This document shows, one piece after another, positions 1,713 through 62,802 of a stretch of DNA of 64,000 nt. Source of the DNA: Candidatus Bathyarchaeota archaeon (GTDB lineage: Archaea > Thermoproteota > Bathyarchaeia > Bathyarchaeales > DTEX01). The stretch is taken from NCBI GenBank assembly GCA_963714275.1, contig CAVQNT010000002.1, positions 864,001 through 928,000 of the forward strand, given 5' to 3'. The notes below the pieces were generated by a model. The model was not told the origin of the DNA. It saw only the letters and a list, made by a program, of their open reading frames with translations, and did no database searches. Positions within the stretch are counted from its first letter, which is position 1. Every line of letters starts with the position of its first letter. Made by a program: the position numbers and the translations under genes.

Positions 1713-1823
1713 ATAGTTGACATACACAATTACACTGAAAGGCTTGAAAGAGCAAAGAAGAGGCTCTTCAAACTTGAGGGCAGCGAATTATTATTTAACT
1801 TCATAGATCATCTAGTCAGCTAG
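1713..1823 (+). pseudogene. N-terminal remnant of an archaeal tyrosine integrase
   Basis: Reads VDIHNYTERLERAKKRLFKLEGSELLFNFIDHL, like the DIHNY..RLE N-terminus of tRNA-targeting archaeal integrases; about 70 nt downstream of tRNA-Thr; no valid start, truncated. Confidence 0.6.
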
Positions 1824-1927
1824 TTCATGTAAAATAAGCAATTTTTTGACGTCTTTTTTGGCAAAGGATTGCATTAAATCTGCTCTACTTTTGCTGTGGT
1901 TTCCGATTTCTAGCTGAGCTATAGTTT

Positions 1928-2081
1928 AAAGGTAGATACAACATCCTAATAGCCGAAGCTTTCATAGGCTGATTCCGTATACATGGAAAAATTCATCATA
2001 ATCAGCGACGATGCAGACTACAAACGAATATCCGAAGCCAAAGTCTTAACAGAAAAAGAGTTTATCTCGCACTTAACGTGA
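1928..2081 (+). pseudogene. C-terminal remnant of a VapC/PIN toxin
   Basis: KGRYNILIAEAFI/ADSVYMEKFIIISDDADYKRISEAKVL (one indel at AGGCT 1966) matches the PIN C-terminal pattern DAxIAA...iisDDxDF. Confidence 0.6.
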
Positions 2082-2203
2082 CTTATCCTTTCTTTTAAAA
2101 AATCTTACATAAAATAGTGGGTCATGGTTTTTCCTTGAATTGCTGAAGAATCAAGCCTTATAAAACAATAGTAAGTATTCAATTGGTTAGAGAGAGATAC
2201 GAA

Positions 2204-3139
2204 ATGTTTATTAAGATTCTTGTCTGCGACCCCATCGACATTAAGGGCATTGAGAAGCTTAGGCGGGAGGGCTTCGAGGTTGACGTTAAGTCCTCAATCA
2301 AACAGGCGGAACTCGAAAAAGTCGTTGCAGGTTACAATGCGCTTGTGGTCAGAAGCCGAACCAAGGTAACCAAACAATTATTGGAGAAAGGAGGACGACT
2401 GAAGGTCGTTGGACGGGTCGGATCTGGCGTTGACAACATCGACTCGAAGGCTGCTGAGAAACGTGGAATAGCGGTTTTGAACACGCCTGAGGCTCCGTCT
2501 GACTCCGTGGCTGAACTGACCATTGGACTGATATTAGCGATTGCGAGGAGAATCTCGTTCGCTGACCGTTCCATGAAAGACGGGAAATGGGCAAAAAAAG
2601 AGCTGGAAGGCTCATTACTTAACAACAAGACCTTAGGATTGATCGGGCTGGGAAACATCGGAGCCAAGGTTGCGAAGATCGCGAAAGCCTTGGGCATGAA
2701 GATTGTAGTTTTCAAGAGGACTCCGCCAAGTCGGGAGCTGTTTGAGCTGCTGGAGGCTGAGTTTGTTCCGTTGGATGAGCTGCTTAGGAGAAGCGACGTG
2801 GTTTCTGTTCATGTTCCCCTTACTGCTCAGACGGCAGGCATGATCGGAGAGAAGGAGCTAAGTCTCGTGAAGAAGGGAGTGATTCTGATTAACACTTCCC
2901 GAGGTGGCATCGTGGATGAGGATGCGCTTTTGAAAGCGTTAAAATCTGGAAGACTCGGTGGAGCAGGCTTGGACGTTTTTTGTGTTGAGCCGTCAAAGAA
3001 TATTGAGCTCATTCAGTTATCGAATGTTGTTTGCACGCCTCACATTGGGGCTCAGACAAAGGAAGCGCAGAAGGCAGCTTCGGTTCTATTGGCTGAAAAG
3101 ATCATACAGTTCTTCAGACAACAATTAAGGAATGTATAG
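2204..3139 (+). CDS. serA: D-3-phosphoglycerate dehydrogenase-like D-2-hydroxyacid dehydrogenase (short form, no ACT domain)
   Basis: VVRSRTKVT, GSGVDNID, GLGNIG Rossmann motif, NTSRG, LDVF..EP, TPHIGAQT. Confidence 0.8.
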   Translation: MFIKILVCDPIDIKGIEKLRREGFEVDVKSSIKQAELEKVVAGYNALVVRSRTKVTKQLLEKGGRLKVVGRVGSGVDNIDSKAAEKRGIAVLNTPEAPSDSVAELTIGLILAIARRISFADRSMKDGKWAKKELEGSLLNNKTLGLIGLGNIGAKVAKIAKALGMKIVVFKRTPPSRELFELLEAEFVPLDELLRRSDVVSVHVPLTAQTAGMIGEKELSLVKKGVILINTSRGGIVDEDALLKALKSGRLGGAGLDVFCVEPSKNIELIQLSNVVCTPHIGAQTKEAQKAASVLLAEKIIQFFRQQLRNV

Positions 3140-3217
3140 TCTGCCTTCGCAGGAGTTCGTTACGTTTAAATTGGTTCTGGTAGAAACAGTTAAGCCATAA
3201 ACAGGAGTGAACCGTTC

Positions 3218-4485
3218 TTGGTTGAGGTTTGGCTGCCCTACGGAAAAACGGAGGTCTGCGTGAGGATTCCGACCAAAAGTTTGCTGAAAACAGTTGAGCC
3301 AAACAATGTGGGTGCAGCCAAAAATCCTCAGTCCGAACTCGAATCGTCTTTGGCGAACCCTTTGGGGACAAAGCGTTTATCGGAAACAGCGAAGCCCGAA
3401 AGCAAGGTCAGCTATGGTTCTAAGGGACTCGGACACCTCGACCAACCAGATGATAGTTTCCGTCTTGTTGAACGAGCTGAACTCTGCGGAAGTAAGAGAC
3501 GAGGATGTGGCGGTCATCGTTGCTTGTGACCCACTTCGCGACTACCAAACTTGGCAGCAGATGCCGACGTTAGGCGAAAGCCTTTCTTCAAGAGTCAAGG
3601 TTGTTCGTCATGACCCTAAGGGCATGGAGCATGTTAATGTGGGGCGAACTTCTCGGGGAACGGATGTTTTTCTGAACAAAGCGTTCGTTGAGGCTGACTT
3701 AAAAATCGTGGCAGGAGCTGTGGAGCCACATCCTTTCGCTGGCTACAGTGGTGGAGCAGAACTGGTTTTACCAGGCGTATCGGGCATTGAGTCGATTCGT
3801 AAAAATTTTCTTTTAGCGTTGGATAAGAAGGTGGAACGTGGAAACATCGAAGGTAACCCAGTTTATGAGGACATGGTTGAGGCTGCTGGGCTTGCTGAGG
3901 TGGATTTTTGTTTAAACGTGGTTAGGAATGGCGGTTTAGAGGTGGTTAAAGCCTTCGCTGGCGACATTGAGGGTTCTTTTGGGGAAGCAGTTAAGCTCGT
4001 GAATGGGGTGTGCAGCGTTCCTGTTGACAGTCGGGCTGACGTTGTTTTTATTAGTCCAGGCGGTTTCCCATTTGACGGAAGTCTTTTCGAGTCTTTGAAG
4101 TGCTTGGATGTTGCTGAGGAACTGGTAAAAAGGGGTAAGTCTGTGGTTTTGGTCGCGGAGTGTGCTCATGGGCTTGGAGACAGAGAGTTTGTTGAGGCGG
4201 TATCAAGGCGCGATAATCTTAAGGCTTTGGAGAAGGAGGCTGAAGAGAAACTTCAGCGTCGGCAGGCTTGTGGCTTACCGTCTTTTAACCGCTGCCCAGA
4301 ACGCCAGGTTATTCTTTGTTTCGGTTGTGCCCGACTACCTTGTCACTCAGGTTCACGGCGTGAAAGGCGCGAGGACGGCTAATGAGGCTTACCGTTACGC
4401 TTCTGACGCTGCTGGGAAGAACGGGAAGGCTTCGTTTGTTCCGTACGGAAACTTGACTGTGCCCCAAATTAAGACCGTGGAATGA
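3218..4485 (+). CDS. LarA (lactate racemase) family protein, 2 apparent frameshifts
   Basis: VWLPYGK start, PLGTKRL, GRTSRGT, VEPHPFAGYSGG..VLPG, SPGGFPFD, LVAECAHGLG. Confidence 0.8.
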
Positions 4486-5257: not shown

Positions 5258-6079
5258 TTAATTTGCTGCGGCTTCGGTTTCTTCTTCAGTGTAGGTTCGC
5301 AGCCTGTTCATAAGTTCGCGGAAGTCAACTTGGTGCGCGTCGAATTCGGGACCGTCCACGCACGCGAATTTTGTTTCCCCGCCAACCGTGATTCTGCATC
5401 CGCCGCACATCCCGGTTCCGTCAACCATAATCGGGTTCAAGCTAACAACCGTTTTTACTTTGAACGGACGGGTAACCTCGGCGACCGCACGCATCATAGG
5501 CACTGGTCCAGCAGCCATGACGAGGTCGATTTTTTTGCCCTTTTCTAGGAGACTTTTCAGAACGTCGGCAGTGAAGCCTTTTAACCCCTTTGTTCCGTCG
5601 TCGGTTGAGACGTGAAGCTCGTCGCTTAGGCTCCGTGACTCCTCCTCCAACAGCAGAAGGTTGACGTTTCTGGCTCCAAGAATCGTAATTACGCGATTTC
5701 CAGCCTCCTTCAACGCTTTGACCCACGGGTAAATCAGCGCCATTCCCACCCCGCCACCTACCACGGCAACCTCGCCGTACTTTTCTGCATTAGTGGGGTT
5801 GCCTAGGGGACCAACAATGTCCATGATGGTGTCGCCGATGTTGAGGTTTCCCAGCTTCTTGGTGGATGCTCCTACCTCCTGAAGAATGAGGACGATTGTG
5901 CCTTCCTTCGGGTTCCAGTCCACAAGTGTAAGGGGGAACCTTTCGCCTCGTTCGTCAATCCTGAGAATCACGAACTGCCCTGCGTGAGCCTTCTTCGCAA
6001 TGAGAGGCGCGGAAACCACTAGGCGTTTGATGCCTGGCGCCAACGAGTCTTTTTTCAGAATCTGGAATTTCTGTGCCAT
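5258..6079 (-). CDS. NfnA/SudB-type FAD/NAD-binding [2Fe-2S] subunit of ferredoxin:NADP oxidoreductase
   Basis: GQFVILR...GERFPLTL, GPLGNP, GGGVG, SLNPIMVDGTGMCGGCR...CVDGPEFD. Confidence 0.9.
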   Translation of the reverse strand: MAQKFQILKKDSLAPGIKRLVVSAPLIAKKAHAGQFVILRIDERGERFPLTLVDWNPKEGTIVLILQEVGASTKKLGNLNIGDTIMDIVGPLGNPTNAEKYGEVAVVGGGVGMALIYPWVKALKEAGNRVITILGARNVNLLLLEEESRSLSDELHVSTDDGTKGLKGFTADVLKSLLEKGKKIDLVMAAGPVPMMRAVAEVTRPFKVKTVVSLNPIMVDGTGMCGGCRITVGGETKFACVDGPEFDAHQVDFRELMNRLRTYTEEETEAAAN

Positions 6080-6270
6080 AAAAGGTCCTCCACATTGCAT
6101 TATGCGGGTCGAGTGTAATAGCGGAAATAATCATATAAACGTTATGAGACAAACTAGTCAGCTCACGTCCATACGTTCGACGCCCACAATTTCAAAAATA
6201 GTTATATCAAGGGCAAAAAATTTTATGTTATCAGACCTTCATAGCATAAAATTGGTTAGGGCGACTGTTT

Positions 6271-6681
6271 ATGGCGGAAGACGAGGAACTTGCGGAACTG
6301 AGACGCAAAAAGCTTGAAGACTTGATGCGCCAAAAACAGGAGGAACCCGTTTCTCCAACAACGAGCGCAACAGTTGAGGTTACTGACCAGAATTTCGCCA
6401 AAACAGTAAGCAAAGAAGGCTTAGTAGTGATCGACTGCTGGGCAATCTGGTGTTCACCGTGCCGCATGTTAAGCCCAATCATTGAGGAGCTCGCGAAGGA
6501 CTACGTTGGAAAAATAGTTTTTGGTAAGCTGAACGTGGACGAAAACCGCGACGTTGCCCTTGAGTACCAGATAATGAGCATACCCACAATTCTGGTTTTT
6601 AAGAACGGAACCCTCGTGGACCGAATCGTAGGCGTCATGCCCAGAAGGCTTCTGGAACCAAAGATAACCCAGCACCTTTAG
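6271..6681 (+). CDS. trxA: Thioredoxin
   Basis: WCSPC active site, IMSIPT cis-Pro loop, archaeal N-terminal helix. Confidence 0.92.
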   Translation: MAEDEELAELRRKKLEDLMRQKQEEPVSPTTSATVEVTDQNFAKTVSKEGLVVIDCWAIWCSPCRMLSPIIEELAKDYVGKIVFGKLNVDENRDVALEYQIMSIPTILVFKNGTLVDRIVGVMPRRLLEPKITQHL

Positions 6682-10433: not shown

Positions 10434-10555
10434 GCCCAAAATTTCACCGACACGTCCCAAATGCCCAAAGCATGTTTCGCTGAATTTTCGAAGTATGATT
10501 AATCGGGATGATTTATATTTGTATATCTCCACAAAACTTAAGGCGGCGAGTAGAA

Positions 10556-11459
10556 TTGAGGATTACACGTTACGTTCACCGAGGAGCAGAATCCTACGGC
10601 GTTATCCAAAGAAACGATAAGATTGCGGACCTTCCCAAACTTGGCAAAATTCAGGGAAAAACTGTTCCACCAACAATCGATGGACTCATCTCTCAAGGTT
10701 CAGCAGCGGAAAATCTTGTCAAAGAAATTTTGGACAGTGCCCCGAAAAGCCAAAACAAAAAATTCCTTCTTGAAAAAGACGCGGTTAAATTGAAGGCGCC
10801 AGTCATTTCTCCGCCTAAGATTATTTGTTTGGGGGTTAACTACAGGGACCACGCTGAAGAGGCAGAAGCCACTCTTCCAGAAGAACCCATAATTTTCATG
10901 AAGCCGAGAACAGCCTTGATAAGCCCCGAAGAACCCGTGAGAAAACCACGTTTTGTCCGAAAGTCTGGATTACGAAGTTGAACTCGCAGTAATCATAGGC
11001 AAAACAGGAAAGAACATTCCAACCTCAAAGGCGCATGAACACGTTTTCGGATACACAGTTTTCGACGACATTTCAGCGCGGGACATACAGTTCAAGGACG
11101 GTCAGTGGACGAGGGGAAAAAGCTTCGACACCTTCGCTCCTTTCGGACCCTGCATCACGACATCTGACCAGATTGGCGACCCGAACAATCTCCGTCTGTG
11201 GACTCGGGTGAACGGCGATACGAGGCAAAACTCTTCGACAAAAAATATGTTGTTCAACGTTTACGAAATCGTTCATCACCTAAGCCGAGTGATGACCCTT
11301 GAACCGTGCGACATAATAGCGACTGGGACACCGGCAGGCGTGGCAGCTTTCATGAAGCCGATACCTAAGTTCCTTGAGCCGGGCGACGTCGTAGAGGTGG
11401 AAGTCGAAAACATCGGAACCCTCAGAAACCCCATAACCGAAGATGCTGCAGCAACGTGA
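10556..11459 (+). CDS. Fumarylacetoacetate hydrolase family protein, 1 apparent frameshift at 10962
   Basis: KIICLGVNYRDH, LDYEVEL, DISARD, GKSFDTF, TGTPAGV. Confidence 0.9.
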
Positions 11460-12587: not shown

Positions 12588-12791
12588 TTATTGAATGTTG
12601 TAAGAACCTATGTGCTGGGTATTTTTAGGGAATTTCCGTAAGAGTTCTAAGTCAGCGGTTAGAAGGGCAGCCTTAAGATGGAGAGTGAACGCAACATACG
12701 AAGCATCATAGACTGATACATCATGTTTTAAGCTAATCGTGGCGGCTTGTTCAAGAATTTTGCCTTTAGGTTCCCACGTATCAAAGCTAGC
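12588..12791 (-). pseudogene. C-terminal half of a VapC/PIN toxin
   Basis: EPKGKILEQAATISLKHDVSVYDASYVAFTLHLKAALLTADLELLRKFP contains the PIN motifs YDAxY and LxTAD; in-frame stop immediately upstream, no N-terminal half. Confidence 0.8.
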
Positions 12792-13087
12792 TCAGCTATA
12801 GGCAGCGCTTGAGTAAGTGGCTTTCCAGACTTCCAAAATTTCCTTTTCGACGGGAGTCATCTTCTTAAAGATATTGTTCATGCCCATGGTTCATCAAAAC
12901 TTACCATATTATGGGAACCTTTTAAATAAAATTTTAGCATATTCAAACTAACTTCAGACTTTTCTGATGGTTCATTGCCTTTTCTCACGCTTGCGTCAGC
13001 GACGTTTTTTGTTTAAACCGTTTTTATCATGCAAACAGAAAATCCCATTGTCACACAAAAACAGACAGCCTATGACGCCATTGGTTT

Positions 13088-45476: not shown

Positions 45477-45490
45477 CTTTCTTTGTCCTC

Positions 45491-47715: not shown

Positions 47716-47731
47716 ACTTTTGTCACTTACC

Positions 47732-49386: not shown

Positions 49387-49451
49387 AAACACCTTCTAAT
49401 CACATTGGGTACAACCATATTTTTGTCAGAATCACCATATAATATTTAACA

Positions 49452-51082: not shown

Positions 51083-51210
51083 TGTTCTTCGCTCCAAAAG
51101 AATACTTATCACTTACAGTAATAAAAGGGATTTAAACTTTATAAAACGCTTTCCAATAACAAAAGCAGTTTTCAATATATTTGTATCGAGCTTGTTTAGG
51201 TAGGGCTTTT

Positions 51211-52125
51211 TTAGTGAGTGGTTACATTACATTTTCTTATATAAGCCGTGTAATGCCATCCTTTAGTGTTGTTTTAGCTTTTGAATCCAAGCATTTTTTC
51301 CGCTTTTGCTGTGTCTGCCAATGTGTCGTTAACATAGTTTTTGATGGGATTTGGCTTGTAAATTGGTTTAATGTTTTTTCCGATTAGTCATTCAGTGAAT
51401 CGATGATTTGGTTGAAAGCTGTATGCAACTCCTGTTCCAACATTGAAAATTTCGTATTCAAAGTCTTTTTCCATAGCCGACATTAATGCTTTTACAACGT
51501 CTCCAACGTAAATAAAGTCCCTTGTCTGGTTTCCATCCCCAAAGATCGCGGGCTGTTCTTCCTTCAACATAGCCCAAAGAAATTGAGTGATTATGTTTGC
51601 GTATTTGCCCTTGTATTTTTCTTTTGGTCCGTATACGCTGAAAAACCGTAGGCCAATGGATTTTACGCCATATAAAGCGTTGTAGAGTTTTGCCAGCCTT
51701 TCAATTGAGTATCTGCATTCAGTGTAATAGTCTGTAACATATATGGGCATGTCTTCACGGTAAGGGGGTTTATTTCCATTATATAGGCTACTACTGCTTG
51801 CGTAGACAACGTTGCATTTTTTTTTCTTAGCATATTCAAAGACTGTAATTGCGTCATTTATTGCCTCACCGACGAGTTCAGGATTATTTCTATACATAGG
51901 CGAAGAAGATGGTATGCCAAGATGGAAAATCATGTCAGGCTTCTGAACAAGCGACTCCATTTTACTATAAGGTTCACTAAAAATTTTGGCTCCTAAGCCT
52001 TTAAGATTATTAGGATTTCCAGTGTTCATGTTGTCGAATACATTTACAGAATGTCTTTCGTTTAAAAGGCTTTCAACTAGATTACTACCAATGAAACCGC
52101 ATCCGCCCGTAACAATTGTCTTCAT
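51211..52125 (-). CDS. NAD-dependent epimerase/dehydratase, frameshifted near the C-terminus
   Basis: TGGCGFIG, ASSSSLY, FSVYGP, GDGNQTRDF, NVGTG, TLADT.KA...LGF. Confidence 0.85.
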
Positions 52126-52256
52126 CTAATAAGTCACCCTATAATTGTTCATTTTATCCTTTCAGCTCAGCTGACTATTTAGTTTTTATATGGTTATTTT
52201 TAAGCATTAAGTATTAATTAACAATTTTTAAAGTTCTTCTTTTTCATTCCAAATTT

Positions 52257-52541
52257 CTAGATTGTTTTCCTTTTGGACCTTTGTCGAATTGGTAGTTCAT
52301 AATTCTCGCCAATGAACCAGCCAAAAATGGCCACTAACGCTCCGAAAGTGATCATCAACAGTTGCGTAGGTATATCGAAGTTGAACACTGCTAGTGGACT
52401 AATAAAGATTACCAGCCCCGACACGTAGGCTAAGGCTCCGAAAACAGCTGAAACAGTCATGCCCACGATTTCATGAAGCTTCTTTCCTAAAATAAAACCA
52501 GCCAAAAACGTTATCAGGATCATGAGCCAACCAAGGTCCAT
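52257..52541 (-). CDS. Small membrane protein
   Basis: Three hydrophobic segments and a basic C-tail. Confidence 0.55.
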   Translation of the reverse strand: MDLGWLMILITFLAGFILGKKLHEIVGMTVSAVFGALAYVSGLVIFISPLAVFNFDIPTQLLMITFGALVAIFGWFIGENYELPIRQRSKRKTI

Positions 52542-52806
52542 TTTTACACTTTGCCCCTTCGTTCTTTTATGGACCCCTATCTTAAGCAATAACATTAAAT
52601 GGTTTGTGTATTATAAAACGATTCTTTGCATCAATATTTATGCACAAAGACGTGTAGGTACATCAAAGGTTGTCTTACCTATTACTAGTGACTAGTGTGC
52701 GTGAGTTTAAATTTTAATCTTTTTCTTCTTCTTTCTATTACTCTATACATTACCCCCTTCACTCACGCGCACGTGTGTGTGACTCACACAAAAAACACAA
52801 AATATC

Positions 52807-53610
52807 TTAAGAGAATATTAACAAAAATAGGGGGATTTCTGGAATCAGCTCGGTTTCGGTTTTCTTGTAATTGTAGTAAATGTCAATAAAAGCCAATCCC
52901 ACGAGCACGGTGAAGCCTGCGACGAGTATTGAGCCGATGAACGGGATTAGACTCAAGACGAAGCTGCCGACGATAGCTATGATTATGAGTATTATTATGT
53001 CGCCAAGTCTGTTGCCCAGTACTTTGAAGGCTATAGATATGCTGTCTCCTATTCCGGTTTCGTCTATGACCATTATGACGAACATCAGGATTACGACTGG
53101 AATAAGAATAATCGTAATCGCCAAAATGGCTCCGATTATGGAGGCAAGAATGAAGGGTAACATCCGTTTAACAACATAGTTGACACTCCTTGAAAGATCC
53201 AACTCCTCATTCAAGTAAGCATCCCTCGACATATCTATGGAAGCAAAAAACATAATGTAAGACACAACTGCCCCAATCAAATTCAAGATTACGCCAATTG
53301 CTGCCAGGCCGATTGCAGCAGGACCGAATAGGTCAGCGACCCACCACCATCCCAAGGGGAAGAACCACTGGGCAACAAGAGACAACACTGCAGAAACAAC
53401 TGCGCCGACCAGAGCCGGCACCAACACGTGAGGCTTTGAAGTAATAATGTTCACACCTTTCTGCAAAGAAGAAATCGCATCGGTCTTCTGAACTGGCGCA
53501 GTTTTAGCCTCTTCCTTCTTTTCTTCTCCGCCAACGAGATCGTGGCCACAATTAACACAGAATTTGGCGCCTTCTTCAACTTCTTTTCCGCAATTCGGAC
53601 AGAACAGCAT
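52807..53610 (-). CDS. Zinc-ribbon multi-pass membrane protein
   Basis: FCPNCG...FCVNCG followed by about 5-6 TMs; GGAGGG RBS. Confidence 0.8.
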   Translation of the reverse strand: MLFCPNCGKEVEEGAKFCVNCGHDLVGGEEKKEEAKTAPVQKTDAISSLQKGVNIITSKPHVLVPALVGAVVSAVLSLVAQWFFPLGWWWVADLFGPAAIGLAAIGVILNLIGAVVSYIMFFASIDMSRDAYLNEELDLSRSVNYVVKRMLPFILASIIGAILAITIILIPVVILMFVIMVIDETGIGDSISIAFKVLGNRLGDIIILIIIAIVGSFVLSLIPFIGSILVAGFTVLVGLAFIDIYYNYKKTETELIPEIPLFLLIFS

Positions 53611-54066
53611 GAAACTGCATTCCCTCCATATTTCTTTTTTCTATCTGCTTGAACACAAAATATAACGTGGAACTTTAAAAGCCTTTAAAAAAATTAAAAT
53701 TTAAAGGAAAAGTTGGAAATAGAGAGTGATTTTTCACTTGATAACATAATTAATGAAGGGAAAACCAGAGACAAGAAGCACGCCCTCATAGGAAAGTGTC
53801 TAGGTCCAAGTTCTGGGTTCTCATAATCCCCAATAACGGAAATCCTTTTGAGGCTATATATTTGACTGTATTTTTTCGATAAGGCTGAACCGCCAAAATA
53901 GTGAGCTATTCATACCGAGATTTCGCGCATGTCTCTCTTTTTCCTCTAATTGCGATTAACAGAAGCCATTTCAGCAAAAAATATTAGTGAGCTAGCGAGA
54001 GAAAAGAGACAATAATTAACTTTGGAGAAGAACTTAGAATGATGGTTTTAGCACATCAGTTTTTAC

Positions 54067-54598
54067 TTAGTTTCTGTTTAGGAGGTGTTTTAACATTGAG
54101 ATTAGGTCTTTTATGTCTAGAAGAATGATCATTATTCCTCCTAATGCAAGTGTTAAACTAAAGCCTTGTAGAACTTCAGCTAGGGTTGTCATCTTCCAGC
54201 CTAGCCAGATTCTTACTGGTTCTTTGTATAAAAAAATCATTATTGCTAATGTGATGGTTAGAAAAATGGCAATTCCAATGGACAGTAAGCCAACATGATA
54301 ATGATGAATTCTTTTTCCATGAAAACTTATTTTAAAAATAAAGAATCTCCATACTACTATAAAATATATTATAATCACTGTTAGGGGGGCTAAGGGGATC
54401 CAGAGTGGAATGCTTAGGTTGAAGGGCACTTGAACTGCGTAGAGTGGGCTTTTTTGCCAGAAAACTGTTATTACATGCTGGTCAAGGCGGATCCATAGGA
54501 AGTATCCGTCTAAGTGTTGGTTGAATATGATGCATATTGCGATGAAGGCGAAGAACAAGACTTACTATAATTTTTATTTTTGATTCCTTAATTTTCAT
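54067..54598 (-). CDS. Membrane protein with HHxH motif, 1 apparent frameshift at 54558
   Basis: RIHHYHVG motif, four TMs; ATG 54598 is in frame after an AGTCT>AGCT repair. Confidence 0.6.
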
Positions 54599-54695
54599 GG
54601 GTTTCTACCTTTATGTTTCATGAGATGTTCTAAGCCTTTTTTTCATGCGGACTGTGTGCTAAAGCAATGATCCTATGTTATTCATCATTACCTTT

Positions 54696-55939
54696 CTAGG
54701 TAACGTTTTTTGTGTGTCTTCCAGTCTTTTCTGTTTTAATCCATCTTCTTGGCAGTCTAAGGATCATCTGCATAAAAGCTGTTGCTGTTAGGATGCTTTG
54801 CAGGTTCCAGTAGGCGTATATGAATGGCAGCCAGATGACGTTTTTTATTTTCACTGGCTTTGTAACGTATATTAAGGCTACGCCTATGGTCAGAATAGTG
54901 GCAATTGCAAAAACCAGTGTGCCTTCTGCCATTACATTAAGTATTGGGTCGTGAATGGGGAACAAGAAGAGGTATAGCGACATTATGTAGCTCAGGAAGA
55001 AGAAAGAAAGCACGTATGGTCCCATCATTGTAACTTCAGCGTCGAATGTTTTTCTTTCAAACCTTTTTAAGAATCGTCCGTACTTAACAGCTACTTCCAT
55101 GTAACCTCGGTACCATCTTAGCCGTTGCTTAATCAGTTGAGAAAGATTTGAAGTACTTCTTGCCATGAGATAAGTTCAGGAGCTAATTTTATGCCGTAAC
55201 CTTTCTCCGTAATTCTTAGTGACATCTCCAAGTCTTCAACCAAGCAGTTTTCGTTCCATAATCCAACCTTCTCAATGACGTCTCTACGGATAAATTGGCA
55301 ACTTCCAGCTAGGGATACAAAAAGGTTGAGAGAGTCTTTTCCTTGTAAAAAGGTTTTAAGCCAAACTACCTCCTCATAGGATATCATCTTGGTCAACATG
55401 TTCTCATCAGCGTTTATTGTACAGGTGGTTCCCTGAACTGCTGCTATAGACGGATCTGTGAAGTATTCGGCTGCGTTTAGTAAGGTGTCAGGTTCAGGAA
55501 CATTGTCTGCGTCGAAAACGGCGACAATCTCTCCTTTTGCCTGTTTGAATCCGAAGTTTATGGCTGAAGGTTTTCCTGTTGAAACGTCACGGTGAAAGTA
55601 CTTTATGGTCTCGGGGCAGCGTGTAGCATAATCTTTACATATTTCTGGTGTTCTGTCTGATGAGCCATCTTCAACTAATATTATTTCCTTTTTTTCAGGT
55701 GGGTAGTTAAGCCGTACTAGGGCGTTCAATAGCCTTTCAGCAACTTTTTCTTCGTCCTTAAGAGGTACAATAATATTTATTGTGGGAAGATTGATGTTTG
55801 GCATTGCCTTGTTTTTTCTGTTTTTTGAATTTGATTGATGGAAGTGTCTTATTCCCATGGCTAGGATGGGGATGTTGTAGGCTGTCCAGACGTATATTAG
55901 AATCGTTAGAATGTAGGCAATCGCTAAGATTAGGTTCAT
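54696..55939 (-). CDS. Processive GT2 glycosyltransferase (cellulose synthase/PgaC-like), 1 apparent frameshift at 55155
   Basis: EDGSSD, GKPSAIN, FDAD, VEDL, QRLRW; N- and C-terminal TMs. Confidence 0.88.
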
Positions 55940-56594
55940 CTAGTCTTCCTTTTTACATTTTTTTTAATATTCTGCGAGAAGGGAAAGGTTCTTCTTCTCC
56001 TTTCTATCTCTCTCAGTGGGCAATTATCATTATTCTTCTACCTTTATATATAAAAATTAATGTAGCCAATCCTTTTACGTCATGGTGACAAGAATTCAGG
56101 TTGCTGGAGCTTCAATTTCAGATATTTATAGGGTTTAAAAAAAGAAGGGAAGGAGAAGGGATGACTTTTAAACTATGCGTTTCAAGTATGTCATCAATAA
56201 TAATTAGAAAAAGTCGTTTCAGAAGATGAGAATAATTGTTTAAAGTTGGTTAGCTGACTGTCGGGGACATGAAGTTTTACTTAGTGTGTGTATACTTGTA
56301 CCAGTTTTCAAAGTACAGTACATTTCTACGGCAGTTTTTTGGGACTAAGTAGATGACTGATGAAGAGCATGAGTTGTTTAGGTCTTTTTGGGAGAACATC
56401 AAGAAACTCAAACAGCCAGCCTGTTCTTGGTTCTAAGTAATGTTCAGCGCTGACTGGTTAGGTGTAACCTTACGGCATTTGAAGCTCTGGCTGAAACCGT
56501 ATCACAGTCCAATGTTAACGCTGAAGCAACTATGAGGGTGTCGGTGGGAAAACTTAAATAGGTGGGAATAATATCCTTTGGTGGGCAAAATACA

Positions 56595-56840
56595 ATGGAA
56601 ATCGTTAAAGTTGACGAGAAAGGCAGGATAGTCATTCCAAAAAGCCTCAGAGAGAAGACTGAAATGAAAGAAGGAAGCTATGTTACAGTTAAGGCCGAGA
56701 AGAAAGCCATACTCATTCAACCCCTGGAGCCAATTGCCAGAAAATACTTTGGAGCCTTCAAAATCGCCAAGTGGCCCAAAGACCTAGATGAATTTGTCGT
56801 CGAGGTTATGAAAGAATGGTGGACGCCGAAAGCTACGTAG
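56595..56840 (+). CDS. vapB: AbrB/MazE-type antitoxin
   Basis: VKVDEKGRIVIPK.LRE; overlaps the PIN gene. Confidence 0.85.
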   Translation: MEIVKVDEKGRIVIPKSLREKTEMKEGSYVTVKAEKKAILIQPLEPIARKYFGAFKIAKWPKDLDEFVVEVMKEWWTPKAT

Positions 56841-57241
56841 ACATCAACATCTTCATTTATTGGCTCGGTAAACATCCGACTTTCGGTGAAGCAGCATACG
56901 AGTGGATTAGAAAGATTGAGGACAGCCCTCGCGGGAAATACGTAACATCCAGCCTAACTCTGTACGAGACACTAGTGATTATCGCAGGTTTAACAGGTAG
57001 AAATCTGAAGGACAAACAACTAGTGGAAGGTGTCATCGCCTCAATAACAGGCCTCAAAGGCTTAGTGATTGACCAACTGATGCCTGAAGACCACATTCAA
57101 GCCGTCGAATTAATGAAGGAGTATGACCTTGACTACGAAGACTCCCTGCACCTAGCTGCAGCATTGAGAACAGGTGCAAAACAAATAATATCAAACGATG
57201 AAGACTTCGACAATACGCCATTGAAGAGAACTTTCCTCTAA
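56816..57241 (+). CDS. vapC: VapC PIN-domain toxin
   Basis: YVDINIF, E, DYEDSLHLA, IISNDEDFD. Confidence 0.88.
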   Translation: MVDAESYVDINIFIYWLGKHPTFGEAAYEWIRKIEDSPRGKYVTSSLTLYETLVIIAGLTGRNLKDKQLVEGVIASITGLKGLVIDQLMPEDHIQAVELMKEYDLDYEDSLHLAAALRTGAKQIISNDEDFDNTPLKRTFL

Positions 57242-57308
57242 CGGGAGCTCAATGACCAATGAGTCAGCTACTACAAGTAGAGAAGAATGTAAGAAGAAAA
57301 AATTAGAA

Positions 57309-58178
57309 TCAAATATATTCTTTTGCTTTATCCAGTAATTTGTCAATTTCAATAAAATTTTGTTTATAACTATTTTTTTTGTTATAAGTAACTGCTGAAG
57401 TAAGGAATGCTGCTGATGACAAAACTAATGCTATCATTAAGAGCCAACAGTCTATTGCAACATACTCACCTTTTGGACCCTGAGGACCAATATCACCAGT
57501 ATCGCCTTTGTCACCCTTAAGTCCTTGAGAACCTTGAGCACCTGTGTCTCCCTTAGGACCCTGAAGACCCATAATATTTGCCACAACTGTCCAAAAGCCA
57601 GAAACTTTGTAGTAAATATTACCGCTTAAAAGGTCTAAGTAGAAATCACCATTTATTCCCAGTTCACTTGAGGGTAAACCTGAACCATTATACCATCTTG
57701 TTCCTTCACCTGCTGGACCCATAGGACCAACTGGACCTTGTGGACCTGTATCTCCCTTAGAACCTTGAGGTCCCACTGGTCCTTGATCACCAGTATCTCC
57801 TTTTGGACCCTGTGGGCCTTTTGTATTCAAAACAGTAAAGGTTGCAGATGCTGACTTTCCATCTACTGTTACTGTTATATTATAGGTGCCTGGAGTCTGT
57901 GTCTGTATTGTCATTATTACACAGAATGTTCCATCATGTGATGTGCAGGAGTCTCCAAGCCAACCTGGGACGGCTACTCCATTCCAGAAGATATGAATAC
58001 CTTGGTTTTTAGGAAAGCCGCTTCCTATGACTGTTATCACAGAAATACCAGAACTTGGAGTCAATGAAATTGATGGCGATGGTTCTACACAAGCTGCTGC
58101 AACACCTAGACAGGCGAATGTCCGTAGCACCAGAATTGAGGTAACTACTAGCAAAATGGTCTTTTGGTAGTTGGTCAT
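57309..58178 (-). CDS. Membrane-anchored collagen-like surface protein
   Basis: Signal peptide, beta-rich (IPT/Ig-like) segment, two Gly-X-Y tracts separated by WYNGSGLPS..LGINGDFYLD..SGNIY, C-terminal TM. Confidence 0.8.
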   Translation of the reverse strand: MTNYQKTILLVVTSILVLRTFACLGVAAACVEPSPSISLTPSSGISVITVIGSGFPKNQGIHIFWNGVAVPGWLGDSCTSHDGTFCVIMTIQTQTPGTYNITVTVDGKSASATFTVLNTKGPQGPKGDTGDQGPVGPQGSKGDTGPQGPVGPMGPAGEGTRWYNGSGLPSSELGINGDFYLDLLSGNIYYKVSGFWTVVANIMGLQGPKGDTGAQGSQGLKGDKGDTGDIGPQGPKGEYVAIDCWLLMIALVLSSAAFLTSAVTYNKKNSYKQNFIEIDKLLDKAKEYI

Positions 58179-58514
58179 TCTTATCTAAAGAAGGCTTTCT
58201 AGCCAAAAAGATATGCTTTGTGAAAGTCTTTTTCAGAAGAATCTTATATATTAACATAGATCCTTGAGACATTGATTAACGAAGAAGCCTTGTTATTCGC
58301 TAAATACCTACGTGGCGAAAGAGAAACATGGGCTCCGAGAGTGTCATGTTTCGGTTGAATAGTCCTGTTAAATTATAGATGCATGGTATAGAGAATTGTA
58401 TCTATAAGTCTTATAATAATGAAATTAAAAAAGTCATTTGGGATAGTAATAGTGGTATGGAGTGTTATTAAGAAACATGAAGAGGAAAAAGAATATTATG
58501 AAGGTGAAACCCAT

Positions 58515-58889
58515 ATGCCTTTTTGCCCGAAATGTGATAAAGAAAATCCAGTAGAAGCCTCTTACTGTTTTGCTTGTGGAAGCCAGTTATATGTTGCACC
58601 CAATCCATCATATCAGGCGATACAATACTCCACTGCGCAATACACAGCCGCTAAGTTCAGATTTGACTCTACACCTTATGTGTTTGTAGGGACGATTTGC
58701 GCCTTAATCAGCATATTCTTTGTGCCACTGCTCTTTGGAATAATTGCTATAATATGTGGTGGAACGGTTCTGAGAAAAGCTATACAAAGCAGTCAGAGAC
58801 AACAAGGCTGGTTTGTTATAGCCCTAGGCGTTCTATGCATGGTTATTGGACTCATATTGGGAATGTTGGCGGTCCTACCTTACATGTAA
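58515..58889 (+). CDS. Zinc-ribbon membrane protein
   Basis: FCPKC...YCFACG, two C-terminal TMs; GGTGA RBS. Confidence 0.75.
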   Translation: MPFCPKCDKENPVEASYCFACGSQLYVAPNPSYQAIQYSTAQYTAAKFRFDSTPYVFVGTICALISIFFVPLLFGIIAIICGGTVLRKAIQSSQRQQGWFVIALGVLCMVIGLILGMLAVLPYM

Positions 58890-59203
58890 TACTCGCTTTA
58901 GCTTCTATCATGACACAAAACTTTTTGGAAGTACTCTTAAGAATCTCTATGTGCGTTTTTAGCGCGCGCGCTCTGGCTGTCGGTGACAAGTGTTGTGCCT
59001 ATTATAATTTATCTAGCTTCATCCGCTATCAGTATCAACTAATATTCCCAAATTCAAAGTTCCTCAATAACAACAAAAAGCAAGCAATTTTCTGTCTGAT
59101 AGTAATTGTGCATGCAGTGGCTTCAGTTCCAGTTTTGGCAATCCCTTGACCTAGAATTTATAGAAGTTAGTTAGTTAGCTCAGCTTGCTGGAAAGATGTG
59201 TCC

Positions 59204-59920
59204 TTATCGGTTGATGCGGATGACCAGCGCTCCGTCTCCGGTAATGCGGTCTGTGGTTGTAGTAACGTACACAGTGTACCCATATATGTTGAAGTAGTCG
59301 GGGTCTTCTCCTTGAGTAATTTTACGCTTGAGGAAGCTAATGGCATAATCGTTCATTCCGCCGCCAGCTACACCTGGAATGCTGCGGAAATACTGCGGAT
59401 CATCCTTCTCAATCTTAACCTCTGGAATGGGTGGCGTTGACCAGATGTCTCCACAAACTTCTCTAATAGCATTTTTAGCGAAGTTTTCGTCACTGGGCGG
59501 AGTTCCTACTACCACGGCATCAGAACGCCAAACGCCAAGAGATGACCTCGCGCGTTCAGCATACTCTTCGGGAGATAATGATCTGCGAAACAGAATCACG
59601 TATATTCTAATAAGCCCTGAGCCCACTTCTTTTACCATCCTTTCGGCTCTAGCTTCCTGCGGAGGGCTGACCTGGGGCGAAGCCGTCGGTTGTCTAACAC
59701 ATGCAGGTCGCGTGACAGCAGGAGCAATCTTTGACTTCCTAAGGCTTCTGTACCCACCATACGCTGCTGCAAGCGATATGCCCATTAATACGGTAACCAT
59801 GATGACTGCTATCGTACCATCTCCCGCTGCAATAATATAATAAACCACTGAAATTCCGCCTACAAACCAGATGAAACTAAGAAAGAACAGAAAGAAAGCA
59901 AGACCTTTCCACTTGCTCAT
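59204..59920 (-). CDS. Hypothetical membrane protein (2 TMs, Pro-rich linker, soluble domain)
   Basis: 238-aa ORF with hydrophobic N-terminus. Confidence 0.6.
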   Translation of the reverse strand: MSKWKGLAFFLFFLSFIWFVGGISVVYYIIAAGDGTIAVIMVTVLMGISLAAAYGGYRSLRKSKIAPAVTRPACVRQPTASPQVSPPQEARAERMVKEVGSGLIRIYVILFRRSLSPEEYAERARSSLGVWRSDAVVVGTPPSDENFAKNAIREVCGDIWSTPPIPEVKIEKDDPQYFRSIPGVAGGGMNDYAISFLKRKITQGEDPDYFNIYGYTVYVTTTTDRITGDGALVIRINR

Positions 59921-59985
59921 TCCTTATTCCGCCTTGTCTCACCATTGTTATATAGCTTTTAATTAGGTTTATGGTGCTTCAACAA

Positions 59986-60303
59986 AACCTGTCTGTCTAT
60001 ACAATCTCTGTAAGGTTTTTCTGGGTCTGTGTTCGGTGAACACTTCGCCTTTAGTAGCTAACTTCATATTCGGAAAAGACCAAAAGATCTGGGCTGCAAA
60101 GAAGGTTGCACAATATGGTGATTTACAAGCCATTTCTGTCTTGAAGGAATACTTAGAAGTGGAAAAAGATGAAGATGTTAAGAGAGCTTGTCAAGAAGCT
60201 ATCGCTACTGTTGAAAGATTAAAAGAAAGAGAAGAAGAAGGTTAAATTTTAATTCCTTCCTTCCTTCTCTTTCGAATACTCCCTCTCCCTAAACAGACAG
60301 GTT
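59986..60303. mobile_element. 318-bp unit bounded by 14-bp inverted repeats, carrying a HEAT-repeat fragment (MITE-like)
   Basis: AACCTGTCTGTCTA (59986-59999) and TAAACAGACAGGTT (60290-60303) are 13/14 complementary; no TSD seen. Confidence 0.5.
60036..60245 (+). pseudogene. HEAT/PBS-lyase repeat fragment
   Basis: WAAKKVAQYGD.QAI.VL...LE.EKDEDVKRACQEAI. Confidence 0.6.
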
Positions 60304-60750
60304 CCCTTAAATTTCATTCAAACAAAGAAAACATCCTATATGAAGATCATACAACATACACTAAATGCAACTAAAGTAAAAACATTCTACGAAACGCTGA
60401 ATTAGAAATTCCACCATGTTGGGTTTTGGCTAGAAAACATTTTCGGGTAGTTACTCAGAACAATCGCTTTCCAAAACTTAACAAGATAAGAAACAGGCTG
60501 ACTTAAGGGAACTAAGAATGCTGTGTGTTGAATATGCTCCTGTTCATGTTTATTTCAGCGTTTTGGATTGGCTTTTCCCTGAGAGAGTGGGAAGGAAAAG
60601 CAAGTCTAACAAGGCTGAACCAGCCAGTGACGAGTATGTTTTTGATGTCGATTAGCGTGCGTGCGCTATTTTTATCCGTATATCCTTTTTAGAAAAGGGA
60701 TGTACTCGACATCCATATATTATTATTTTAATAAGAGCATACAATATGTA

Positions 60751-60804
60751 TTAAACATTTATAATGTTCTAAAGATGTTAAACATTTATAATGTTCTAGA
60801 GATT
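60751..60804. promoter_or_regulatory. Tandem 27-bp repeat, each copy with palindrome AACATT-TAT-AATGTT (putative operator pair)
   Basis: TTAAACATTTATAATGTTCTAAAGATG and TTAAACATTTATAATGTTCTAGAGATT (25/27), about 80-130 nt upstream of the Thr-rich gene. Confidence 0.65.
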
Positions 60805-60884
60805 TGTTTCATCAAGTTTTATAGTAATATATATTAACATTTAGACTATGAAAGTAAAGCTAGCTCAGCTAAACAAGTGATAAA

Positions 60885-61589
60885 ATGATAGATTTTATGA
60901 TGAGATACCCTTCCTTGAAGACGCCAGTTAGATGGCTAGTAGTGTTTCTAATACTCTCCGCAGTAACCATTACACCTGCCAATTCTCAGACGGAAACGAC
61001 AACCGAGACTACATCAGTAACTTCAGTAACAACGGAGACTACGACTGAGACTACCCAAATAACTTCAGTAACAACCGAGACAACAACTCAAACCAAGACT
61101 TCCGCAAGACGAACAGTAACTTCAGTAACAACTGCAACCACTACTCAGACTACGATCACAACTACGACTCCGGCAACCTCAGTTACAACAGCAACTACGA
61201 CTGCGACCACGACTCAGACTACTTTAGTAACGTCTGTAACAACTGCGATAACCACTCTGACAACAACTACTTCCACCCCATTGACCTTATTTACTACATT
61301 AAGGGAAACGACAACTACTACTACTTCAATAACGTCAGTATCAACAAAAACGGAGACTACTACTACTCCTGTAACATCAGTAACAACTGCGACAACAACT
61401 CAAACTACAACTTCAACTACGACTCCAGCACCGTCAATAATAACAGCAACAGAGACAACCACACTCATTTCAACTACAGTAATAGTTCCCACAATTCTAT
61501 GGTACGGTCTATGGTACCCAGTAATAGTGGGAATAGTAATATTCGCCATCATAATAAGCGTCTATGTACTGGCAAAGCCTAAGTCATAA
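60885..61589 (+). CDS. Thr-rich mucin-like surface protein
   Basis: Signal peptide, repeated TSVTT(E/A)TT units, C-terminal TM plus KPKS. Confidence 0.8.
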   Translation: MIDFMMRYPSLKTPVRWLVVFLILSAVTITPANSQTETTTETTSVTSVTTETTTETTQITSVTTETTTQTKTSARRTVTSVTTATTTQTTITTTTPATSVTTATTTATTTQTTLVTSVTTAITTLTTTTSTPLTLFTTLRETTTTTTSITSVSTKTETTTTPVTSVTTATTTQTTTSTTTPAPSIITATETTTLISTTVIVPTILWYGLWYPVIVGIVIFAIIISVYVLAKPKS

Positions 61590-61659
61590 TGATTAGGCTT
61601 GTTTTTGTGAATAAATGCGATGAATAATATATAAATTAAAGATAAAGAACATAAGGAGA

Positions 61660-61829
61660 TTAGATTACTTCTTTTTCTTTAAGATATTCGCGAATGCAGA
61701 AGTTAATAAAGCTAGATGGGCTTCTTACTCCATTTTTTAGCTTTAGTTCATCTTTTTTCTCATCATAGAACTAAAAGCTCGCCTATAAACTTCTATTGGA
61801 ACTGCGAGTGATCTCCAACCTTCAACCAT
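61660..61829 (-). CDS. Small ribbon-helix-helix-like DNA-binding protein, 1 apparent frameshift
   Basis: MVEGWRSLAVPIEVYRRAF/FYDEKKDELKLKNGVRSPSSFINFCIREYLKEKEVI; GGAGG RBS; not in the ORF track. Confidence 0.55.
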
Positions 61830-62198
61830 TCATGATTTCCTCCTTTATATTTTGAAGATACTACTACCCAGCATTGAAATCGATTTTGGATTTGGACGTT
61901 TTATAACAGTATAATATTTAAACTTTTTGATGTTATACATAACAGTTTATAAATAACTTTTGGGATGACGAATTCTCCTTGAACTTTTTTTATGTACAAC
62001 CGCATCTATCGACTTCTCGCATTTTCCTAATTCCTAAGGTTAACTGTGAAAATTCAAAAGAAGAGTTTATTCTAGTAGCTTGCTAGCTATGCTTTCCCAT
62101 GAAAAATTGACGAGGACACAGAACAATGAATGCCACTTACTGCAATATTAACACAAAACCTATATAATAAAAAATTAATAGCAGACTGAAGCGAGAAG

Positions 62199-62802
62199 TT
62201 GAAGCTTATCTTTAAGAGTTTTAGGGCTGCTCTTTGCAGATTTGGGAATATTTTCTCTGGTCTGTTCATTTTTTGTTCCTTTTTATCGTTCTCTACCTGC
62301 TTGGAAACATTGGGATGGCACTTATACAATTGGGGCAGGAACGAGCAATGGACCTTTAGTAGAACTGTCCTATTGGCCAGTGGTTGAAGGAATGCTTGAA
62401 ATAAGCGGAGGCCACAATGATATTTATTTCTCAATAGAAGACTCTCAGGGAGGAACTGTAATTTCGAAAACGTTGGCGATAGATAGATACTACTTCGGTC
62501 CATTTCAGGCGTCACATAACACATATTATTTCAAGTTTGACAATAGTATAAGCCTGGATACACCCAAGACGGTATATTGGATAGTCCGTGCGTATTGGTA
62601 TAACCTTGTATTCTTAATATTTGGTGTTTCTTCACTGGCTTTGGGAATAATCGTATTGTTGTATGAAAGAAAAAAAGACCTATTCTTTCGTTGGCGTAGT
62701 CAGCTATGGTTTTTGTTTTTGATGTTGTCTATTTGTAGTAGTATTTTGTTTTTATGTGTTGGGACAGCTTGTTTCAGCCTTAATTTGGGTAACAGGGCTT
62801 GA
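62199..62802 (+). CDS. Membrane protein with GOLD/emp24-like beta domain (probable true stop about 62703)
   Basis: NDIYFSIED.QG, YYFKFDNSIS..TPKTV between two TMs. Confidence 0.6.

Follow-up and report, generated by a model that had tools for sequence, protein, structure and literature searches.

The DNA analysed here is a stretch of 64,000 nucleotides, referred to as the window, from Candidatus Bathyarchaeota archaeon (assembly GCA_963714275.1, contig CAVQNT010000002.1, positions 864,001 to 928,000 of the forward strand). In our numbering, the window is C2:864001-928000 of genome G000, an assembly of 2.64 Mb in 10 contigs that is estimated to be 91% complete. The small number of contigs, one of them of 1.0 Mb, and the many split genes suggest long reads. 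The subject is a short tandem of the tetranucleotide AGCT, (AGCT)n, hereafter the tract, together with a set of variant spellings; S in AGCTSAGCT and AGTSAGCT denotes C or G. Consensus errors of the assembly were concentrated at AGCT, and the tract was abundant, intergenic and clustered. The ends of homologous segments coincided with it. The individual sites in the window, with the genes they adjoin, are the following.

1814-1821, variant tract AGTCAGCT inside CTAGTCAGCTAG, intergenic; a motif match, with no Pfam family in the eight flanking frames
1912-1920, variant tract AGCTGAGCT (TCTAGCTGAGCTATA), intergenic, upstream of the 2-hydroxyacid dehydrogenase gene at 2183-3139
6156-6163, variant tract AGTCAGCT, in the divergent spacer between 5258-6100 (minus strand) and the thioredoxin gene at 6271-6681 (plus strand)
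12785-12797, tract AGCTAGCTCAGCT, at which the open frame of a PIN (VapC) C-terminal remnant starts (12588-12791, minus strand)
24591-24599, plus strand, AGCTCAGCT within korB, the 2-oxoacid:ferredoxin oxidoreductase beta gene; an inserted C at 24595 splits the gene (24353-24601 and 24678-25070)
30998-31005, variant tract AGTGAGCT (TGTAGTGAGCTAAA), in the convergent spacer between 30258-30914 (plus strand) and 31105-31569 (minus strand)
38260-38268, variant tract AGCTGAGCT, intergenic, upstream of the GH94 gene at 38451-40975, which is itself split by a frameshift
45897-45905, minus strand, AGCTGAGCT inside a DegT-type aminotransferase gene; genuine coding sequence, outside the element
50213, an extra G beside AGCT, an assembly error that splits the SMC/AAA_23-like gene at 49452-50961; left out in runs X1 and X2
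52164-52176, tract AGCTCAGCTGACT, at the left edge of a low-G+C variable stretch; the C at 52168 is missing from contigs of two other runs
53900-53907 and 53986-53993, two variant tracts AGTGAGCT in one spacer, 86 nt apart
55155-55156, the missing G of a TAGCT, an assembly error that splits the GT2 glycosyltransferase gene at 54696-55939; the G is present in runs X2, X3 and X4
56252-56259, variant tract AGCTGACT, on the left side of the vapBC module
56341-57300, plus strand, strain-variable segment with vapB (56562-56840) and vapC (56816-57241)
57262-57269, variant tract AGTCAGCT, on the right side of the vapBC module
58960-58973, companion palindrome TAGCGCGCGCGCT of the form TAGC(GC)nGCTA, intergenic
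59177-59185, variant tract AGCTCAGCT (GTTAGCTCAGCTTGC), intergenic
60858-60870, tract AGCTAGCTCAGCT, 15 nt upstream of an open reading frame (ORF) at 60885-61589
62698-62705, variant tract AGTCAGCT; two paralogous matches on the same contig end at 62697

An earlier note, made from the letters of the window alone, had pointed out six sites of the form AGCTSAGCT, and all were present (1912, 12789, 38260, 52164, 59177 and 60862; the earlier positions included the preceding base). To these we add 24591, which that note had mentioned in its text as part of korB, and 45897. The eight sites of the form AGTSAGCT were likewise found, at 1814, 6156, 30998, 53900, 53986, 56252 (minus strand), 57262 and 62698, as were three further ones at 20384, 49227 and 52169. 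Expectations for the window came from 100 dinucleotide-preserving shuffles. AGCTSAGCT occurred 8 times compared to 0.53 expected, and no shuffle reached 8, in keeping with the excess claimed before. AGTSAGCT, counted on both strands, occurred 11 times compared to 3.79 expected, with one shuffle in 100 reaching 11; on its own, this excess is weak. The 16-mer AAAGCTAGCTCAGCTA is indeed common to 12783 and 60856. The statement that all listed sites but the last are intergenic holds on a crude ORF map, on which 62698 falls in a 186-aa ORF that matched no Pfam family. A crude ORF mask, which leaves 23% of G000 as intergenic, underlies the intergenic fractions given below for this genome. The gene remnants proposed for the neighbourhood fared unevenly. 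A VapC remnant at 12588-12791 stands weakly, as the C-terminal half of a PIN domain (E 1.7e-4, under the curated cut-off). The VapC remnant at 1911 and the integrase remnant at 1813 were not recovered, since the eight flanking frames matched no Pfam family at E ≤ 0.1.

The variant spellings were compared with contigs of four other public runs (X1-X4), aligned to window positions 44001-64000; the differences reported are those among the ones listed, and stretches for which none is listed say nothing either way. The central C at 52168 was absent in X1 (depth 20.9 of 20.9) and in X3 (4.53 of 4.53). Among the listed insertions or deletions (indels) supported by at least two runs, five of six lay at or beside AGCT (50213, 51279, 51415, 52168 and 55155), and the remaining one, 56309, was in a homopolymer. 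In silico deletion of 50213 extended the reading frame from 258 to 505 codons, and a G added behind 55155 extended it from 268 to 414 codons. Deleting 51279 and 51415 left the epimerase frame unextended (245 to 246 codons). In korB, the halves of which match TPP_enzyme_C positions 1-42 and 69-151, deletion of 24595 opened the frame from 159 to 243 codons, as the earlier note had anticipated.

Repeated DNA within G000 pointed to the same motif. One- or two-base indels between 34 near-identical duplicate pairs lay beside AGCT in 37 of 112 cases, compared to 4.5 expected, and AGCT ranked first of all 4-mers at these positions. AGCT was also found at 23 of 91 indel columns, with a background of 2.2%. 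At one site, two 98%-identical copies read TAGTCAGCTA and TAGCTCACTA; at another, in a pair of 98.9% identity, the spellings were AGCTCAGCT and AGCTAGCT. A 9.1-kb inverted duplication of 98% identity (C2:80457-89565 and C2:962456-971573, ~ 880 kb apart) contains several tracts and can serve as an internal standard for the error pattern of the assembly. Among AGCTSAGCT sites in long frames, deletion of the central S made the frame 50 or more codons longer at 7 of 24, whereas 2000 random deletions gave 48 gains and 865 losses.

Further evidence came from related genomes, for which three sets were used: 31 genomes of the order (G000 and 30 relatives), the 7 species of the genus and 201 Bathyarchaeia genomes. 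TAGCTSAGCTA occurred 52 times in G000, 0-5 times in each of the 30 relatives, and not once in G002, the closest relative (170 contigs). The clean form TAGCTAGCTA was counted 45 times in G000 and 17 times in G002, where its reversed control occurred once. At two orthologous sites, G002 was clean (TAGCTAGCTA and AGCTAGCTAGCTA), whereas G000 carried an extra S (TAGCTGAGCTA and AGCTCAGCTAGTTA). Without its flanks, AGCTSAGCT was enriched in all relatives too, in part presumably because of tRNA D-arm sequence.

In our estimate, the odd spellings are very probably, for the most part, sequencing or consensus errors at tandem AGCT. The suggestion that all variants might be miscalled tandems thus stands in the main, borne out by other runs, the relative, the duplicates and rejoined genes, but does not extend to every site, some spellings such as 45897 being genuine. 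One could go further and regard the whole pattern as an artefact of basecalling, adapters or assembly, given that the assembly errs systematically at exactly this motif and that the odd spellings are nearly confined to it. Clean tracts, however, were present in contigs of three other runs, in G002 and in genomes of other families, at least eight of them, one being a single-contig genome (G102). As an account of the whole pattern this explanation is hardly credible, and for the clean tract it is refuted.

Several genes of the window are split into two or three overlapping frames. These are an AIR synthase-related gene (432-1484), an FAA hydrolase gene (10508-11459), moeA (18075-19223, in three pieces), the GH94 gene and the SMC-like and GT2 genes. 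The splits in the SMC-like and GT2 genes are assembly errors at AGCT, and the other housekeeping genes are probably split by errors of the same kind rather than being pseudogenes. Two other routes to such errors were set aside. Among frameshift candidates taken from 694 overlapping open frames, AGCT was merely 1.64-fold enriched, the set being swamped by ordinary overlapping genes. Reading the overlaps of split genes by eye was uninformative because an erroneous site no longer reads AGCT.

AGCT appears to behave as a modified motif in G000. Most likely, the cytosine of AGCT is N4-methylated in the organism and the assembly was made from error-prone nanopore long reads. No C5 cytosine methylase gene was found in G000, and five loci of the N6_N4 methylase family were. 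An archaeal restriction-modification survey describes persistent orphan N4-methylcytosine methylases for AGCT in Nitrososphaerota and Methanomicrobiales (PMC10609329), and a basecaller comparison attributes ~ 70% of nanopore consensus errors under default models to methylation motifs (PMC6591954). We must also mention a 277-aa N6_N4 methylase and a 195-aa HNH-domain protein encoded with an 8-nt overlap at G000:C2:148977-150387, likely a Type II restriction-modification pair. The pair was present in 5 of the 7 species of the genus; elsewhere in the order, none of the 24 remaining genomes gave a match for the HNH protein.

Beneath the errors lies a clean element. With an order-3 Markov background, TAGCTAGCTA and GCTAGCTAGC led all 10-mers of the genome in over-representation, at 73-80 times the expected count. 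GCTAGCTAGC was counted 84 times on both strands, compared to 1.0 expected, and TAGCTAGCTA 90 times (that is, 45 palindromic sites), compared to 1.2. CTAGCTAGCT followed in the ranking, and then the spellings AGCTCAGCTA (99 vs 4.1), TAGTGAGCTA (44 vs 1.4) and TAGTCAGCTA (48 vs 3.3). Between TAG and CTA, the inner words CTAG, TCAG, TGAG, CTGA, CTCA, CTCAG and CTGAG together accounted for 189 sites, with a uniform expectation below 2 for each word. Clean runs of at least 8 nt numbered 203 in G000, compared to 18-90 for five control tetranucleotide cycles. Their lengths were continuous between 8 and 20 nt, with no preferred starting letter or phase. The 22 tracts in the loci fetched from G002 were clean AGCT-period runs of 8-13 nt, and the runs of G102 measured 8-18 nt. 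A broader search pattern gave 452 distinct tract loci in G000.

The element was strongly intergenic: 42 of 45 sites for TAGCTAGCTA, 141 of 152 for AGCTAGCT and 48 of 52 for TAGCTSAGCTA, compared to 3075 of 11737 for AGCT alone. Stop-rich controls lay between genes in 272 of 495 cases (TAG-N4-CTA) and 47 of 77 cases (TTAATTAA). With these controls at 55-61% intergenic, avoidance of stop codons in coding DNA accounts for the bias only in part. The genome-wide count against a Markov background that the earlier note had proposed came out in favour of a true enrichment, with more than 90% of sites intergenic. The tracts stood at no constant distance from the starts or stops of genes and showed no bias for spacer type (one was present in 13.7% of convergent, 14.0% of divergent and 10.7% of tandem spacers). 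Because they are not biased in position relative to genes, readings as promoters, terminators or attC-like sites were set aside.

The loci were over-dispersed, with a mean of 3.3 and a variance of 11.6 per 20 kb, and 151 of the 452 fell in 13 of 138 bins. Tract density correlated with G+C content at -0.37. Spacings below 200 nt between tracts numbered 60, compared to 14.6 expected, and 31 of 74 short segments between tracts had other copies in the genome, several of them matching from tract to tract. In the densest island (C5:158-178 kb), a tract lay between nearly every gene pair; the genes there were ordinary or paralogous informational ones (FtsZ, TBP, SSB-like, NERD, TFE) and not mobile-element genes.

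Three further observations concern these islands and arrays. A family of ~ 370-nt units has at least five copies (C4:142829-143195, C6:475343-475713, C6:414475-414798, C3:105731-106080 and C1:28896-29216), with tracts on both sides in several of them; read by eye from the DNA, the units comprise an apparent A+T-rich promoter region and a minus-strand ORF of ~ 50 codons. A 116-aa ORF at G000:C2:354133-354483, which adjoins a split serpin gene in a tract-rich island, matched Cas1 only over the C-terminal portion of the profile (positions 170-275 of 283) and may be either a Cas1 fragment or a frameshifted gene. Finally, a palindrome of the form TAGC(GC)nGCTA often abuts an AGCT tract, as in CTAGCTAGCGCGCGCTA at C2:86586. 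Its form GCGCGCGC occurred at 70 sites, 86% of them intergenic even though it holds no stop codon. The counts of TAGCGCGCGC were 45 in G000, 0 in G002, 10 in G027 and 8 in G017, and 20 in 88 kb of G102. The contrast between G000 and G002 suggested one more miscall, but the 20 copies in G102 stand beside clean tracts; the palindrome could be a misreading of long tracts or else a true companion motif.

Within the genus, TAGCTAGCTA was frequent only in G000 (45) and G002 (17), and weakly so in G004 (4); the tract was absent from 4 of the 7 species. In the class (201 genomes) its distribution was patchy, but the sequence could be far more abundant than in the genus, with at least eight further tract-bearing genomes from four other families. 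The counts of TAGCTAGCTA and of its reversed control in these were as follows.

G138: 209 and 0
G143: 111 and 8
G084: 105 and 2
G102: 81 and 6
G130: 60 and 6
G169: 20 and 3
G048: 11 and 0
G181: 10 and 0

In G102 the sites were clustered; in 88 kb of loci fetched from this genome, 50 of 53 runs were intergenic and only two S-variants were seen. Together with the wide occurrence of clean tracts, this indicates that the phenomenon is general and that the S-variants are peculiar to G000.

A palindrome iterated under selection or by methylation-linked biased repair, in the manner of HIP1, or alternatively a site for a chromatin or regulatory protein, which the earlier note had offered as its second reading, would fit several of these features. 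HIP1 (GCGATCGC), a palindrome of cyanobacteria, is described as 15-300 times over-represented and tied to two methylases (PMC5861425, PMC4390886), and the tract has an excess of 73-80 times, holds the presumed methylation site, is patchy and lineage-specific, and was kept at three orthologous positions between G000 and G002. The coincidence with ends of homology would then be secondary to the location of the tract between gene units. This explanation appears unlikely to us. Neither a fixed distance to starts or stops nor a preferred spacer type was found, tract length and phase vary in a way unusual for a dimer-binding operator, and with four of the seven species of the genus lacking the tract, a regulon would have to be very young. 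The position of the homology ends, given next, also argues against it.

BLAST comparison of G000 with itself placed 89 of 2060 ends of high-scoring segment pairs (HSPs) within 8 nt of a tract, compared to 6.3 at random (at most 16 in 200 trials). In a signed histogram, 99 HSP ends fell in the 20 nt around the tract edge, with a smooth fall (38, 24, 19...) outside the HSP, and tracts lying 10-80 nt inside an HSP numbered only 1-4 per 10-nt bin. Counted by locus, 94 of the 452 lay at an HSP end and 26 in an interior. Of 98 such ends, 18 had an ORF boundary no more than 20 nt away, and 41 were more than 150 nt from any ORF (50 aa); even there, homology ended within ~ 10 nt of the tract. Gene ends alone do not account for the effect. 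Within the window, the paralogous matches C2:930492-931022 and C2:962316-962438 both stopped at 62697, beside the tract at 62698.

Strains and species gave comparable pictures. In place of positions 56341-57300, the vapBC module, run X2 has 25 letters that end in AGCTAGCTAGCT; X3 and X4 have GCTAGCTAGC(TAAGA) instead of 56402-56532, and one X1 contig diverged at 60281, directly after TAGCTAGCTA. Among those listed from other runs, a tract occurred in 3 of 7 junction inserts and 1 of 24 loose ends. In the comparison with G002, a homology block ended within 15 nt of 8 of the 22 G002 tracts, compared to 5.8% of random positions, and only 2 of the 22 were spanned by homology, compared to 53% of random positions. 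A DNA search of window positions 50001-64000 against the 30 relatives found genes 66-94% identical and spacers that failed to align. A metagenome comparison with the collagen-like protein at 57309-58178 returned a best relative of 84% identity on a 4.2-kb contig, which was useless for a site-by-site comparison. Since homology between paralogues, strains and species stops at the tracts, we read them as joints of a mosaic, and the proposal that cassettes and gene fragments break at these sites is supported by the strain junctions, the homology ends in the self-comparison and in G002, and the PIN remnant.

The earlier note had gone on to interpret the doubled AGCT or CTAG as a target-site duplication or excision footprint, left by a 4-nt staggered cut and fill-in. 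The unit is indeed a tandem of 4 nt, tracts lie at junctions and at the truncated PIN gene, and repeated cutting and filling could yield 2-5 units. The expected pattern, a single AGCT at the empty site and a doubled one at the filled site, was nevertheless not seen in the strain and paralogue comparisons. In the boundary pairs of paralogues that were read (9 of 29 in the class), the copy lacking the motif had no AGCT at the boundary, which speaks against a staggered cut having duplicated an AGCT already in place. Where a strain lacks vapBC, its "empty" site reads AGCTAGCTAGCT, with three AGCT units instead of one. The lengths were continuous over 8-20 nt, each of the four letters could come first, and the 14 insertion/empty-site pairs of the G000 self-comparison gave no consistent target duplication. 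Of five transposase families searched (DDE_Tnp_1, TnpB zinc ribbon, IS110, Y1_Tnp and rve; PF01609, PF07282, PF01548, PF01797 and PF00665), none was found in G000; other families were not searched. The inserted segments examined held ordinary genes and no transposase; in two with tracts near both ends, these were an Alba paralogue and a P-type ATPase. We therefore regard a cut-and-fill footprint as very improbable. As a separate observation, G002 has a 1.3-kb insertion compared with G000:C1:75338-75359. The insertion lies between two direct copies of a 16-nt repeat, CTTCAAGTATAAAAAA (L102:3121-3136 and 4463-4478), and starts 22 nt past a tract that has three units in G002 and two in G000.

Taken as a whole, the data are best described by a composite: an intergenic mosaic whose joints are methyl-marked (AGCT)n tracts on which some activity works, with consensus errors superimposed. 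We hold this to be somewhat better than an even proposition. N4-methylated cytosine would cause the consensus errors to concentrate at AGCT, and tandem AGCT would then be spelled AGCTSAGCT, (T)AGTSAGCT or AGCTSACT at many places. The real element is a self-complementary (AGCT)n, typically TAGCTAGCTA(GC), of 8-20 nt at ~ 450 loci and nearly confined to spacers. Such tracts are concentrated in low-G+C variable islands, often in arrays with units of 50-400 nt that recur elsewhere. Gene-sized and smaller modules may have been exchanged, inserted, truncated or inverted at these joints by a putative recombination or nuclease activity recognising the tract. That the tract is a site of action rather than a passenger is what we infer from these coincidences; its role as a recombination site proper falls slightly short of an even chance.

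Several points weigh against this composite. Some variant spellings are genuine, as at 45897, where an X2 contig covered 45749-46039 with no differing letter and no gap and in silico deletion shortened the frame from 457 to 368 codons; genome-wide, deletion of S gave 17 such "loss" sites. The modification and the sequencing platform are inferences only. Intergenic DNA diverges fast, and the G002 test used random positions, not spacers, as controls, so that its contrast is inflated. Boundary pairs with a tract in one copy only numbered 130, compared to 12 with a tract in both copies, a poor fit to simple, reciprocal site-specific recombination, for which both partners would already need a site. 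The self-comparison gave only 14 clean insertion/empty-site pairs, and few of them had a tract: 3 at the left joint, 2 at the right joint and 2 at the empty site. In addition, the tract could not be linked to any recombinase, nuclease or transposase. G000 has ~ 14 tyrosine recombinase genes of roughly 270-430 aa, but hit counts for this family do not follow tract counts across the 201 Bathyarchaeia genomes. The methylase and HNH pair is present in two species of the genus without TAGCTAGCTA and was not found in five tract-rich genomes. Both candidates were rejected.

GIY-YIG was not found in G000. Among 2.9 million viral contigs, 88 stretches with TAGCTAGCTAGCTA were found, mostly one per contig, and no tract-rich virus was seen. 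Some of the recombinase genes lie beside a ~ 2.2-kb repeat (C2:304590-306844 / 307530, C4:12180-14298 / 14996 and C6:369071 / 369715), and these loci are probably integrated elements.

A bolder proposal is that the tracts are working sites or products of a new DNA-joining system spreading horizontally among Bathyarchaeia, which we consider quite doubtful. Joining could proceed by a nuclease or recombinase acting on methyl-marked AGCT repeats. It could also proceed by an activity adding self-complementary AGCT tails to DNA ends, so that any two ends might anneal and be ligated. Either route would explain the one-sided tracts, the variable length and phase, the indifference to orientation, and gene shuffling without a transposase.

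On the practical side, AGCT sites are a source of frameshifts and of false variants of the motif in this assembly and probably in those of other AGCT-methylating archaea. Split calls for korB and the SMC-like, GT2, MoeA and GH94 genes should not be taken as pseudogenes, and motif counts need short-read polishing. On the biological side, a tetranucleotide palindrome punctuating variable islands and marking where exchanged modules end would be an archaeal counterpart of dRS3/NIME or HIP1, one that would have expanded independently in several Bathyarchaeia families, and the tract sites offer a handle for finding a gene-shuffling enzyme in an uncultured, transposon-poor lineage.

In the literature examined on tract spellings, archaeal AGCT methylation and Bathyarchaeia genomes, no description of an archaeal tract was found, and the spelling matches examined were unrelated (primers, oligonucleotides). 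Several known phenomena resemble parts of the picture. As in the methylation-motif errors described for nanopore data (PMC6591954), the errors concentrate at one short motif, persist in the consensus and cause frameshifts. Unlike the Dcm CCWGG case, the motif here is AGCT, presumably carrying N4-methylcytosine, in what are probably nanopore data. HIP1 is reported to embed the target of orphan methylases, with lineage-dependent abundance and a debated function (PMC5861425, PMC4390886, 10.1101/2024.09.10.611283). The tract shares with HIP1 the character of a hyper-abundant short palindrome with a presumed methylation site and a lineage-dependent occurrence. HIP1, however, is a fixed 8-bp word found within and between genes, whereas the tract is 93% intergenic, variable in length and located at homology breaks; it is not a HIP1-type member.

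The tract would resemble attC sites of integrons as a recombination site interspersed in arrays of small or promoterless gene cassettes. An attC site, however, measures 50-150 nt, is oriented with its cassette gene and comes with IntI, while the tract showed no orientation or spacer bias and no link to integrase counts. The REP and BIME elements of enterobacteria and pseudomonads are intergenic palindromes present in hundreds of copies and mosaic clusters, and REPs are imperfect hairpins of 20-40 nt mobilised by RAYT (Y1) transposases. In contrast, no Y1_Tnp gene was found in G000, and the AGCT tract is too short for a stable hairpin.

The NIME arrays of Neisseria come closest. There, 20-bp dRS3 palindromes, ATTCCC-N8-GGGAAT, are described as flanking more than 100 families of 50-150-bp units in arrays, and recombination end points and variable genes as being associated with dRS3/NIME arrays (PMC1797815); dRS3 is reported to be targeted by a phage recombinase and by the site-specific single-stranded DNA nuclease SsnA (PMC11893778). 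The tract differs from dRS3 in its unrelated sequence, a tetranucleotide tandem of variable length with stop codons on both strands, in its archaeal host, and in that no GIY-YIG or IS110-type gene was found in G000. In common with NIME, it is short, palindromic, intergenic and present in hundreds of copies, it stands in arrays that flank recurrent units, and both homology ends and variable genes adjoin it. By this comparison, the tract is alike to NIME in architecture, the closest known case, but not a member of it.

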